Numbered from the stretch's first letter, positions 38,443 through 59,414 are shown. The stretch: 64,000 nucleotides of DNA from Escherichia coli (GCA_032372955.1 GCA_032372955.1_4725.1), one strand, 5' to 3'. A program made the numbers and translations. The notes: generated by a model not told the origin, from the letters alone.

Positions 38443-38646
38443 ATGTTAACGAAGGAATCCAAGAAGAACATTGAAGCATGGATTTTTGATAATGCGCCGT
38501 TGAATCTATCATTGGATCCGAAGGTTCGTGGTTTACAAGCTGATTTTGCGTATAACGTGTTACATGGTTGCTGTTACACGTTAAGCAATCCTAAATATCG
38601 TTATAAATTTCAGGAACTACTCGAAACACTTAGAGGATTAAAATGA
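38443..38646 (+). CDS. hypothetical protein
   Basis: ORF track frame; ATG 38443 with RBS GAGGTGAAAA. Confidence 0.55.
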
Positions 38647-39662
38647 AACAGTATTTGGACCTTTTGCAAGACATCATGGATAACGGTCGCGATAAAGCCG
38701 ATCGCACAGGTACCGGAACCCGTTCCGTATTCGGGCGTCAAATGCGTTTTGACTTGAAGAAAGGATTCCCGCTGGTAACCACCAAGAAGATTCACCTTAA
38801 GAGCGTTATCCACGAACTGCTCTGGTTTCTTAACGGTGATACGAACGTTGCTTATCTTCAAGATAACGGTGTTCGTATCTGGAATGAATGGGCTGACGAA
38901 GAAGGGAATCTAGGACCGATTTACGGCAAACAATGGCGGGAATGGATCGACTATAAAGTGGTTGTTCCGCACGATACAGAACGTACTCGTGAGTTGATGC
39001 AACGCGGCTATGAGTATTGCGGCATCCTTGACGCCGGTATGCTAAAACACCTCGTGTATGTTAAACCTCACGATCAGATTGCAAACGTAATGCGTCAGCT
39101 TAAAGAAGATCCTGATTCTCGACGGATCATCGTTAGCGCGTGGAACGTAGGCGATTTAGACGATATGCATCTCGCTCCGTGCCATTCATTTTATCAGTTC
39201 TATACCCACGAGCTCACGATCGATGAACGCGTTGATTATGTTCAACGCAATGACGTATTAAGAACCCAATGGGTTACGGATGACGTACGGCATAGTGAAA
39301 CGGAACTTTGGTTGAACGCGCATAACGTACCAACACGTGCTTTATCCTGTCAGCTTTATCAGCGATCGTGCGACGCAGTGCTTGGGAAACCGTTCAACAT
39401 CGCATCGTATTCGTTGTTAACGCATATGCTTGCCCAACAGCTGAATATGGACGTTGGTGAGTTCGTGTGGACGGGTGGAGATTGCCACATCTATCACAAC
39501 CACTTCGAACAGGTTAAAGAGCAGCTCAGTCGTGAGCCGTACCCATTACCGAAGCTAACAATCGTACGTAAACCGGAAAGTATTACGGATTACCGTTACG
39601 AAGACTTTGTGTTTGTTGGATATCAATCACATCCGGCTATCAAGGCTAAGGTGGCGGTGTAA
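38643..39662 (+). CDS. thyA: thymidylate synthase (ThyA-like, with two insertions relative to the ~264-aa canonical enzyme)
   Basis: [78 protein letters not shown]. Confidence 0.9.
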
Positions 39663-40033: not shown

Positions 40034-40174
40034 ATGGCCTGGTCATACCCCTATCGTATTCTGATAGGTGTTAAAAATAAGAAAGGTCCCCGTAAAGGTA
40101 AATGGAGATACACCTGGTTATGCGGACAGATAGAACTAAAACCAAGGATCTTCTCTGCCTGGAGTAAAAAGTGA
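40034..40174 (+). CDS. small basic protein with KKGPRKGK motif (46 aa)
   Basis: ATG with RBS TAGGAG; not in ORF track (below length cutoff); motif shared with three other small ORFs. Confidence 0.4.
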   Translation: MAWSYPYRILIGVKNKKGPRKGKWRYTWLCGQIELKPRIFSAWSKK

Positions 40175-40377
40175 TGATTAATTCTCTACAGCGCCACATA
40201 CTAAATCATGTTATCAACGACATGATTGGTGTTCGTTTAGTCAAAGGAAAACACAAGAAAGGTTGCAATAAAGGAAAACGGTTCGTGGCGTATGTGGTAC
40301 CAACGACTGAACGAAGGATCGCAAATGCTGCGGTGGATTCTATCGCGAAAGCGATGCCGTGGCTTATGTTGGACTGA
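40171..40377 (+). CDS. small basic protein with KHKKGCNKGK motif
   Basis: ORF track. Confidence 0.5.
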   Translation: MMINSLQRHILNHVINDMIGVRLVKGKHKKGCNKGKRFVAYVVPTTERRIANAAVDSIAKAMPWLMLD

Positions 40378-40403
40378 CTTTTTAGAGGAAAGAGAGGTTA
40401 CGC

Positions 40404-40595
40404 ATGCAATGTCTCGAAGTGACAGAAGCAGGTACGCTAGAATATATCGACCCGATGTATTCATCCCGATTTATCGCCACTCGATATTTGGATCGTGTTT
40501 ATAACAAACGCGTTAAACGAGGCCCAGGTAAAGGCAGACAGAAGAAAGTAAGTATTTATAAATGCCATAAAGCGCCTAATCCGGTGTATTATTGA
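40404..40595 (+). CDS. small basic protein with KRGPGKGRQKK motif
   Basis: ORF track; RBS AGAGAGG upstream. Confidence 0.5.
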   Translation: MQCLEVTEAGTLEYIDPMYSSRFIATRYLDRVYNKRVKRGPGKGRQKKVSIYKCHKAPNPVYY

Positions 40596-57620: not shown

Positions 57621-58043
57621 ATGAAACTGTTCAAAAATATCGCATTCGCTATCGTCACCACTCTGGCTTTTGTTAGCACGCAAGCACAGGCTAACTGGAT
57701 GGCTCGTGGGAATAACTGTTACGCCTACAGCGAAGACGGTCGTTATCAGATTGGTATCTCCGATCGTTCGCTTGTTGTCATGGGTCAATTTCAATGCCGT
57801 GCGCACTATCCGATGTCTGATACCGTAGGAATCAATGGACGTGTATACCAAGCATTGAATATCTGCAGTCCGGACATGCGTTTGATCCCGGTTATTAGCC
57901 TTGCGAATACAGATCAAGCTGCTAGCGCAATCGCCAGCCTTAAAGAAGCACGTCGTGCGCGTATTCGTGCGTTTAACGAAACCATCATCGTAAATACCGA
58001 TGATATTCAGGCATGCGCTAACAGTGTAGCGGCCGTACGTTAA
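57621..58043 (+). CDS. secreted/periplasmic Cys-containing protein
   Basis: Signal-peptide-like MKLFKNIAFAIVTTLAFVSTQAQA; several Cys in mature part. Confidence 0.6.
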   Translation: MKLFKNIAFAIVTTLAFVSTQAQANWMARGNNCYAYSEDGRYQIGISDRSLVVMGQFQCRAHYPMSDTVGINGRVYQALNICSPDMRLIPVISLANTDQAASAIASLKEARRARIRAFNETIIVNTDDIQACANSVAAVR

Positions 58044-58079
58044 TAGGTATTGTAACATTTTACTTTCGAGGAAAATATC

Positions 58080-58430
58080 ATGAAAACGTTAACTAAATTG
58101 TTTGTTGCTGTTGCTATTCTGTTCGGTAGTGTTGTCGGTTCAGCACAGGCTGGATTGCTGGATAGCCCAGAGGTTTACGATAAAGCAAAAGCAATCTACA
58201 TGGCCATGGAGAGCATGACGCCAGCAGACCTTGAAGAATGTGGTGTTGATTTCGGTACCCCGAAAGAACTTCCCGGAGTTAAGAACCCTACCAACCCCAG
58301 CGTGAAATTGAAAGTGGCAGACTTCGAAGTTTTCAACCCCTCTTTCAAGACCTACGCGCGGGTTCGTATACTTGTTGATCCAGCAACCGGTGTTGTTCAG
58401 GGCGGTGAATATCTCTATCTGGGTAAATAA
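58080..58430 (+). CDS. secreted/periplasmic protein
   Basis: Signal-peptide-like MKTLTKLFVAVAILFGSVVGSAQA. Confidence 0.6.
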   Translation: MKTLTKLFVAVAILFGSVVGSAQAGLLDSPEVYDKAKAIYMAMESMTPADLEECGVDFGTPKELPGVKNPTNPSVKLKVADFEVFNPSFKTYARVRILVDPATGVVQGGEYLYLGK

Positions 58431-58448
58431 TTGAGTAAGGACAATACG

Positions 58449-58658
58449 ATGATTCCAGCTAACCCTCTTTTAAGTATCAATCCTTTCCACAGCAATCCTG
58501 GTGTCGATCAGATACAACCTGCTTTTTTATCACAGTTCCGGGCTGATTATGATGGCGACACCGTAACTGGAAACAGTATCCGTCTGTTGAATCGCCGCAA
58601 GAAAGGTCCAGGTAAAGGCAAAGTAAAAATCATTCAACGTTTAATCTCTTATGTATAA
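58449..58658 (+). CDS. small basic protein with KKGPGKGK motif
   Basis: Track ORF trimmed to ATG 58449 with RBS TAAGGA; motif shared with 40034-40595 cluster. Confidence 0.5.
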   Translation: MIPANPLLSINPFHSNPGVDQIQPAFLSQFRADYDGDTVTGNSIRLLNRRKKGPGKGKVKIIQRLISYV

Positions 58659-58676
58659 ACCAACACTGTTTGATAA

Positions 58677-58716
58677 GTGCCGCCTACATATGGGCGGCAC
58701 TGCTCTGGTCTTTATG
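58677..58716 (+). promoter_or_regulatory. GC stem-loop followed by TTTATGTTG
   Basis: GTGCCGCC TACATATG GGCGGCAC then TGCTCTGGTCTTTATG. Confidence 0.4.
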
Positions 58717-58740
58717 TTGTACAACAGTTGTCAAGGAGGT

Positions 58741-58821
58741 ATGTGGGTACGTGCGTTGTTACTCGCATTCGCGTTAGTGATGTTTCTAAAATTTGAATCA
58801 TCGCTTTATCAGAAAAAGTAA
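58741..58821 (+). CDS. tiny hydrophobic peptide (26 aa)
   Basis: ATG immediately after strong RBS CAAGGAGGT; sequence MWVRALLLAFALVMFLKFESSLYQKK; below track cutoff. Confidence 0.3.
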   Translation: MWVRALLLAFALVMFLKFESSLYQKK

Positions 58822-58831
58822 GAAGGAGTTC

Positions 58832-59026
58832 ATGATGGGACATATGCTACTACGGGGATTAACGGGGATGGTTCTAGCATGGATGGTCATTGGGTTTTGT
58901 GGGATGATGTTCTTCATGGTCGATGAACCTGCTGCCCGAATTAACGTAGGGTTATGGTTCGTCTTCTTGATGATAGCGGTATTCGTTATCGTTACCTTGT
59001 TAAGGAATGTAGGAAAGCGCAAATAA
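58832..59026 (+). CDS. small two-TM membrane protein, holin-like
   Basis: Two hydrophobic helices and charged C-terminus RNVGKRK; RBS AAGAAGGAG. Confidence 0.45.
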   Translation: MMGHMLLRGLTGMVLAWMVIGFCGMMFFMVDEPAARINVGLWFVFLMIAVFVIVTLLRNVGKRK

Positions 59027-59042
59027 ACGAACGGGAAAAGCC

Positions 59043-59414
59043 ATGGGTTTAAAGACATACGCAAAAATCTATTTCATTTTCACTTTTATAATGATTGGGA
59101 TTTCTGCAGCGAATATCGATTTTGAAACAACGACGGAACGCGTTTATTACGTTATCCGAACCATCGTTTGTGTTATAGGGCAGCTTCCCCTTTTGTATAT
59201 TTGTACATGGTCGACGCGTAACATCAGACGGTTTGTCGTGTATGGGTTCGCGTACGTTCTTTTTATGCTTGTTATGTGGCAGGTCGATGCTCGACTGAGC
59301 GATATCGCAAATATCATCGCAACGGCGATTCTCAGTGCAACAAGCTGGTGTTTATTTTTACCGATGTGTCGACGTGTCGAGGATGAAGGTTATGGGTATC
59401 ATGGAGAATCTTAA
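59043..59414 (+). CDS. multi-pass membrane protein
   Basis: Four hydrophobic segments. Confidence 0.55.
   Translation: MGLKTYAKIYFIFTFIMIGISAANIDFETTTERVYYVIRTIVCVIGQLPLLYICTWSTRNIRRFVVYGFAYVLFMLVMWQVDARLSDIANIIATAILSATSWCLFLPMCRRVEDEGYGYHGES

Follow-up and report, generated by a model that had tools for sequence, protein, structure and literature searches.

Three adjacent small ORFs, and a fourth lying further along the same strand, encode proteins that share a (K/R)(K/R)G(P/C)xKG(K/R) motif in the 64,000-nucleotide stretch of DNA analysed here (hereafter the window). They raise the question of whether these are genuine, related genes and what proteins built around such a motif would do for the genome that carries them.

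Four small ORFs and their shared motif

The region is 94-97 % identical by megablast to Escherichia phage vB_EcoM_Goslar, an E. coli jumbo phage of 237,307 bp that belongs to the chimalliviruses and forms a nucleus. All four small ORFs that a reading of the sequence alone had reported at 40034, 40171, 40404 and 58449 were present with the peptides quoted for them, and each has a Goslar orthologue annotated as 'hypothetical protein':

P1, 40034..40174, + strand: 46 aa, ATG 40034; motif KKGPRKGK at nt 40079-40102; orthologue gp139
P2, 40174..40377, + strand: 67 aa; motif KKGCNKGK at nt 40255-40278; orthologue gp138 ('HOV27_xxxxx')
P3, 40404..40595, + strand: 63 aa, ATG 40404; motif KRGPGKGR at nt 40515-40538; orthologue gp137
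P4, 58449..58658, + strand: 69 aa, ATG 58449; motif KKGPGKGK at nt 58599-58622; orthologue gp102

The likely start of P2 is ATG 40174, matching Goslar, with GTG 40171 as an alternative. This ATG overlaps the P1 stop codon as TGATG, and the overlap is kept in the window, in Goslar and in the relatives L025 and L026. SD-like sequences lie 6-9 nt 5′ of all four starts (AGGAG, GGAG, GAGAGG and AAGGA for P1 to P4), the AGGAG of P1 being 6 nt 5′ of its ATG. The encoded proteins have a mass of 5.5-7.7 kDa and a pI of 9.8-10.6, each with 10-13 K+R, among which lysine predominates over arginine, and 3-8 aromatic residues. The surroundings of P4 look like an envelope or lysis neighbourhood, contrasting with the nucleotide-metabolism context of P1-P3.

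Six-frame translation of the window gave four matches to the strict pattern [KR][KR]G[PC].KG[KR] (nt 40079, 40255, 40515 and 58599), always on the + strand and within the P1-P4 ORFs, and 100 second-order Markov shuffles gave none, while the looser [KR]G[PC].[KR]G[KR] matched four times versus 0.02 expected; these statistics are generous because the pattern was defined after inspection of the data. The complete 237-kb Goslar genome contains exactly four strict matches, which are the four orthologues. No further paralogue was found in Goslar by a whole-genome regular-expression scan or by HMM search of 6,918 stop-to-stop segments from Goslar and the window, in which the other motif ORFs ranked next-best with weak scores.

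A paralogous family under coding constraint

P1-P4 form one paralogous family of small basic proteins, and the similarity that joins them is longer than the 8-residue motif, following the pattern R-h-h-x(3-5)-(K/R)(K/R)G(P/C)xKG(K/R)-x-(K/R)-h-h-h. Scores from hhalign for pairs of family profiles were judged against column-shuffled nulls (150 shuffles):

P3-P4: score 35.4, null 10.4±2.4, shuffles at or above the observed score 0/150
P1-P4: score 25.5, null 9.3±2.2, shuffles at or above the observed score 0/150
P1-P2: score 18.4, null 9.1±2.3, shuffles at or above the observed score 0/150
P2-P3: score 12.0, not above null, shuffles at or above the observed score 26/150

At the level of profiles the linkage is thus strong for P3-P4 (hhalign probability 92 %, E 5e-7, 34 columns), good for P1-P4 (probability 36-66 %) and moderate for P1-P2, where the match covers 14 columns; P2 is attached to the other members solely via the motif and P1. 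P3 and P4 are collinear, P3 being without the 7-residue ADYDGDT insert of P4. No DNA similarity is left between the paralogues and their proteins share little identity beyond the module, and as far as can be judged from sequence divergence the paralogues are old.

All four are real genes under constraint. Orthologue comparisons gave pN/pS values of 0.06-0.27 for P1, 0.08-0.19 for P2 and 0.35 for P3. P4 is divided into a hypervariable N-terminal part of 31 residues, with pN/pS of 0.38-1.25 over these codons, and a nearly invariant C-terminal part of 38 residues, the C-terminal module giving 0.05-0.26 in 5/6 pairs and 0.69 for the window versus Goslar. Among the window, Goslar and the relatives L028-L031, the P4 codons for RRKKGPGKGKVK differ synonymously with the exception of one R/C change, and the differences between phages within the motif codons (GGT/GGC, CCA/CCG and CGC/CGT) are synonymous. 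The four paralogues encode the motif by differing codons, which excludes a repeat at the DNA level; a DNA-level repeat or SD-like element was rejected on this ground together with the synonymous-only orthologue variation.

A degree of variation is nevertheless tolerated within the module. The fourth motif position is not fixed, being C, Y or V in P2 orthologues. One P3 orthologue (L026) reads KRGPGKRK, so that the second Gly is lost, and P3 is missing altogether from the relative L025; the motif is therefore not absolutely required. In L026 a 93-aa ORF has the P1 module as its C-terminal portion. Some Goslar-like phages carry P4 orthologues of 96 aa (P0033, P0035, P0036 and P0041; L028/L029 6001-6291) with an internal tandem duplication of a 'D-x-D-x-D...IRLL-x-RRK' unit, in which GDRDSDSAVKEHIRLLVRRKNS resembles ADYDGDTVIGNSIRLLNRRKKG and the first copy is without the GPGKGK tip.

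Many Goslar-like genomes (235-249 kb), recovered from E. coli, Salmonella and Enterobacter samples, encode orthologues with 66-98 % identity. The motif is kept in them and, in P4, its codons vary synonymously only, which speaks against the possibility raised beforehand that it is a generic, unconserved low-complexity basic patch. The same sequence-only reading had proposed looking for the motif in other jumbo phages, and conservation held within the Goslar-like orthologues and stopped at the Goslar lineage. With the four proteins as queries, tblastn against 50,697 phage records returned Goslar only, plus RNA polymerase (RNAP) matches for P4; word-indexed searches of 5.8 billion proteins returned Goslar-like sequences only; and an exhaustive hmmsearch of a P3+P4 profile against 1.84 billion representatives gave three matches, all to the family's own clusters. 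No motif ORF was found at ThyA-anchored loci in 15 more distant jumbo-phage contigs, and neither the other chimalliviruses nor anything else searched yielded a bearer of the motif family. On these sequence searches the family is genus-restricted, confined to the Goslar lineage. Our literature search found no mention of gp102, gp137-gp139 or the motif.

A scan of IMG/VR with back-translated KKGPGKGK recovered Goslar-like sequences, chance ORFs and the tail of an unrelated family, phrog_32989. The octapeptide of this protein of ~55 aa from uncultivated viral contigs is identical to that of P4. It ends ...GTLKYIVKKGPGKGKEPKK*, so that the motif is a C-terminal tail behind a helical segment and not a hairpin tip; its contigs are low-GC and not Goslar-like, and the protein is unrelated apart from the octapeptide. 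A tail of the form ...YIVKKGPGKGKEPKK* was seen in IMG/VR contigs L040, L043, L045, L046, L048 and L049.

Early expression and predicted structure

All four genes appear in published Goslar RNA-seq taken at 30 mpi under ChmA knock-down and in a non-targeting control (Supplementary Table 2, bioRxiv 10.1101/2023.09.20.558163):

gp102 (P4): reads 274/322/304 in the control and 242/263/292 in the knock-down, log2FC +1.1 to +1.3
gp137 (P3): reads 174/222/190 in the control and 87/83/116 in the knock-down, log2FC +0.2 to +0.4
gp138 (P2): reads 191/219/201 in the control and 100/97/121 in the knock-down, log2FC about +0.4
gp139 (P1): reads 62/92/77 in the control and 16/15/48 in the knock-down, log2FC -1.0 to +0.4

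Read counts are modest. Structural genes drop by 4-7 log2 units under ChmA knock-down, and set against that drop a log2FC of -1.0 to +1.3 places all four genes in the early, nucleus-independent class, whose transcripts that study assigns to the EPI vesicle present before the nucleus (bioRxiv 10.1101/2023.09.20.558163). P1-P4 are thus expressed early.

The names gp102, gp137, gp138 and gp139 do not occur in the supplement to a preprint on Goslar virion proteomics, a weak negative because tiny Lys-rich proteins yield few tryptic peptides. A role as virion internal or DNA-condensing protein was rejected in view of this absence, taken as the weak negative it is, and of the early expression.

AF2 models were obtained from family alignments of P2 and P4, both shallow, with mean pLDDT of 64 and 56, respectively. 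The P2 model has a helix (5-19), a strand (22-25), the motif loop (26-38), a second strand (39-42) and helices at 45-66. In the P4 model residues 1-38 are disordered and a hairpin follows (E44-52/E59-67), running from IRLLNRRKK through the GPGKGK tip to VKIIQRLIS; with a pLDDT of ~82 this tip is the sole part above 80 in either model. Two independent models thus agree, with moderate confidence, on a predicted β-hairpin that has the motif as its tip or loop. An AP2-like, dsRBD-like or winged-helix reading of the αββα model of P2 was rejected, Pfam giving no match and Foldseek none better than E 0.7.

Candidate functions and the RNA polymerase-like segment of P4

The motif had been described at the outset as not recognisable as a described domain, and comparison with known families agreed. 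For P1-P4 there was no Pfam match and no PADLOC-DB defence or anti-defence family at E<=10; the best E-values were 0.14-0.22 in PHROGs (not significant) and 0.12 in NCBIfam (far below cutoff), and searches of the PDB gave nothing better than E 1.7 by profile and E 0.7 by Foldseek fold comparison. The family is undescribed; small, basic, early proteins are frequent products of phages, and P1-P4 are a lineage-specific example.

Three groups of known proteins resemble it in part. The motifs of AT-hooks (PF02178) and the Q/RGR motifs of H-NS/Lsr2, which read the DNA minor groove, are likewise short, Gly/Pro-containing and Lys/Arg-flanked; however, the GRP/RGR core of the AT-hook is absent from P1-P4 and their orthologues (KKGPRKGK, KKGCNKGK, KRGPGKGR and KKGPGKGK), and an AT-hook is an extended peptide in a disordered region whereas the motif of P1-P4 is a predicted turn between β-strands. 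HU and IHF (Bac_DNA_binding, PF00216), which work as dimers, are small and basic like P1-P4; their arms consist of two long antiparallel strands with a basic Pro-x-x-Gly-Lys tip, as is predicted for P1-P4, and the tip of the HU/IHF arm inserts into the DNA minor groove. Homology to this arm (R-N-P-x-T-G) was rejected, as hhalign scores of 8-12.5 against a 5-sequence HU/IHF alignment fell within the shuffle null. P1-P4 are half the size of HU/IHF or less, and the helical dimerisation body is without counterpart in P1, P3 and P4, P1 having ~7 residues ahead of the hairpin and P4 a predicted disordered N-terminus; the P2 model has one N-terminal helix and C-terminal helices, yet Foldseek gave no match to HU. 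Basic hairpins of ribosomal proteins (the 'VKGPGxGRE' loop of uS11; KOW, PF00467) are Gly/Pro/Lys-rich inter-strand turns that contact RNA, in proteins of a size and pI near those of P1-P4. Here uS11 was the sole PDB hint, at a non-significant E of 1.8, and there was no KOW or ribosomal Pfam match and no fold match.

Charge and the predicted β-hairpin make nucleic-acid binding by P1-P4 plausible. The reading that we tentatively favour, while placing it somewhat short of an even chance, is that of a β-hairpin acting as a cationic arm, probably in oligomeric form, to bind nucleic acid early in the host cytoplasm; we infer it from the charge and aromatic residues of the proteins, their predicted structure, the timing of expression and the pattern of conservation. 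The conserved core would be a hairpin in which an amphipathic strand (R-h-h...) leads through the motif into a second strand, with the two glycines and the proline making the turn and the lysines decorating the tip, so that it could touch the phosphate backbone or a groove of the nucleic acid as a cationic arm. A lone hairpin would not be a stable fold and oligomerisation is assumed: the hairpins would probably first pair into a small β-sheet oligomer, and P1 and P2, being translationally coupled, may form a heterodimer. Since transcription precedes or is independent of the phage nucleus and translation takes place in the host cytoplasm, the likeliest targets would be on the host side (nucleoid DNA, rRNA/ribosome or mRNA) during early take-over, the enclosed phage DNA being a less likely target. 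Against this reading, none of the known DNA- or RNA-binding families in Pfam, PHROGs, NCBIfam or the PDB (by sequence or fold) matched P1-P4, AF2 confidence is modest, lysine prevails over arginine with no GRP/RGR core, and the losses of P3 in L025 and of the second Gly in L026 also count.

This lack of a matching nucleic-acid-binding family would fit a hairpin that serves as a protein-protein module, docking by β-augmentation or electrostatics on an acidic host or phage surface, for example on a ribosomal protein, on a factor for defence or house-keeping in the host, or on the acidic tail of shell or tubulin. The family would then comprise small early effectors of host take-over or anti-defence, an explanation that we regard as unlikely while the strongest of the alternatives. 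The genes are early, lineage-specific and fast-evolving, with the pN/pS of the P4 N-terminus reaching 1.25, with duplications and with alternative forms; the presence and absence of P3 and the fusion of P1 are typical of arms-race accessory genes; and a lone hairpin requires a partner. However, no PADLOC or anti-defence match was obtained, the invariant part is the charged tip, and the high pI and many aromatics suit nucleic acid at least equally.

More doubtful still is that the motif is a sorting signal, NLS-like, toward the EPI vesicle, the phage nucleus (by PicA/Imp import) or the capsid. Its K-K-x-x-x-K-x-K character resembles classical basic targeting peptides, and the phage nucleus has selective import; recognition there is reportedly of surface patches and not of a linear motif. 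The motif occurs in just four tiny proteins of a 237-kb genome and is absent from known nuclear proteins (polymerases, ligase), it would be embedded between β-strands in the models and not in a free tail, and the silence of the virion proteomics supplement on the four gene names counts against it as well.

The other alternative of this low rank arises from P4, which carries a further segment upstream of its hairpin:

RNAP β′-like segment of P4, 58512..58580, + strand: residues 22-44, IQPAFLSQFRADYDGDTVTGNSI, resembling the catalytic loop of the chimallivirus virion RNAP β′

Here ADYDGDTV follows PAFLSQF, giving the Asp triad D-[FY]-D-G-D in conserved flanks, in P4 only and not in P1-P3; P3 keeps the flanks without the triad. 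By tblastn P4 matches the RNAP β′ of about 45 phiKZ-like phages at an E of about 4 database-wide, pairwise blastp against PhiPA3 gp212 gives 31 bits, and hhalign against a profile of the virion RNAP (vRNAP) β′ junction from 10 phages gives a probability of 84 % and E 7e-6, with 0/150 shuffles reaching the score. In Goslar gp205/exon 2 and PhiPA3 gp212 (NADFDGD) ~23 residues match P4, and the basic hairpin lies outside the match. P4, at 69 aa, cannot be a polymerase subunit: the match spans 23 columns, the double-psi β-barrel and other β′ domains are absent, and AF2 models this stretch as disordered. DNA identity between the P4 segment and Goslar's own gp205/exon 2 junction is just 32/69 (46 %), which indicates that the resemblance is old and at the protein level, neither a recently copied segment nor a DNA decoy; a role for P4 as DNA decoy or repair template for a homing endonuclease was rejected on the same 32/69 nt. 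Common descent from RNAP β′ and convergence are not fully separable for the segment on the sequence comparisons.

The corresponding Goslar gene is itself interrupted. Its gp205 ends '...LAGLGGD', the gene being split inside the DFDGD codons (NC_048170 about 211753-213800), and an unannotated exon 2 ('FDGDTVSVNVLYS...GPRGA*') lies 2,044 nt downstream, just 5′ of gp207; the 2,044-nt insert in this virion β′ gene holds the HNH gene gp206 and an annotated group I intron. The reconstructed gp205/exon 2 junction aligns uninterrupted with >200 chimalliviruses. The Goslar nvRNAP β′ gene gp247 also ends '...GYNADF' at its intron, and across all frames of Goslar and the window gp102 has the only uninterrupted D[FY]DGD outside a tail-fibre gene. 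It is improbable, in our estimate, that P3/P4 and via them the whole family descend from the catalytic-loop segment of the virion RNAP β′, precisely where a group I intron with an HNH homing endonuclease has entered the gene in Goslar-type phages, and act on that system. Under such descent the protein could, for example, combine a mimic of the β′ active site or homing site with a nucleic-acid-binding hairpin and modulate RNAP assembly or intron homing or, alternatively, the endonuclease of a competitor phage during co-infection.

The resemblance of the middle of P4 to an RNAP β′ fragment would also suit a slightly less credible idea, that recombination or homing left the ORFs behind as decaying remnants, functionless or nearly so, which share the motif through recent duplication. 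The loci adjoin genes prone to homing endonucleases (thyA, split in L026, and the RNAP genes with introns), P3 is lost in L025 and truncated variants exist (P0034, P0039 and P0096). Yet pN/pS is well under 1 with synonymous-only changes in the motif codons, the paralogues are old enough for DNA similarity between them to be gone, intact SD sites and translational coupling are kept across tens of genomes, and the genes are transcribed. Hardly credible at all is a purine-rich element at the nucleic-acid level (AAGAAAGG...AAAGG, for example an SD-like ribosome pause or a site bound by protein) that translates by chance to KKG..KG: KKG/KG is necessarily encoded by the SD-like AAR-AAR-GG and AAR-GG, but P3 uses AAA CGA GGC ... 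AAA GGC AGA, the third positions of the Gly/Pro codons vary between paralogues and between orthologues without changing the amino acids, the pattern occurs in frame and on the coding strand only, and the window has no Rfam match.

Nucleus-forming jumbo phages are a leading model of viral compartmentalisation, and most of their roughly 170 early genes are without an assigned function. The family now defined is small, cleanly bounded and paralogous; its structural motif is sharply conserved, its genes fall into an early class of expression, and its members are small enough for peptide synthesis and could reveal a new host take-over activity. Small basic proteins without known function are frequent in phages and the family belongs to one genus-level lineage; its general significance is therefore modest, unless the RNAP/intron connection is functional.

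Introns and homing genes were also observed at other loci. In the window a 368-nt insert that is not in Goslar breaks the nvRNAP β′ gene (323-2700; gp247 homologue, annotated ORF 323-1672) after '...VMILKG'. Two tandem, full-length, sub-threshold group I intron matches (1545-1881, 30 bits; 1996-2323, 44 bits) have a tiny exon ('YNADF') between them, the locus lacks the HNH gene gp186 of Goslar, and a downstream exon with the remaining Asp triad was not located. In L026 (a Logan SRR32206242 contig of a diverged Goslar-like phage) the thymidylate synthase gene just 5′ of P1-P3 is split at 75-2202 by a gene for a GIY-YIG/NUMOD3 (I-TevI-like) homing endonuclease, an arrangement that recalls the T4 td intron, and thyA of the window (38643-39662) is intact.

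Around P4, within 57621-59414 of the window, genes for two signal-peptide proteins (57621-58043 and 58080-58430) lie on one side of the gene and those for several small predicted membrane proteins (58793-59026 and 59043-59414) on the other; in Goslar the endolysin gene gp098 comes after the latter. One further feature follows P4:

Stem-loop, 58676..58700, + strand: GC-rich, 11-bp stem GUGCCGCCUAC...GGGCGGCAC, 18 nt past the P4 stop codon

A simple terminator scan picked up just a short sub-stem at 58692-58705. With a folding energy of -24.3 kcal/mol (z = -3.2), the stem-loop may be a terminator or RNA-stability hairpin between P4 and the membrane-protein/endolysin genes.
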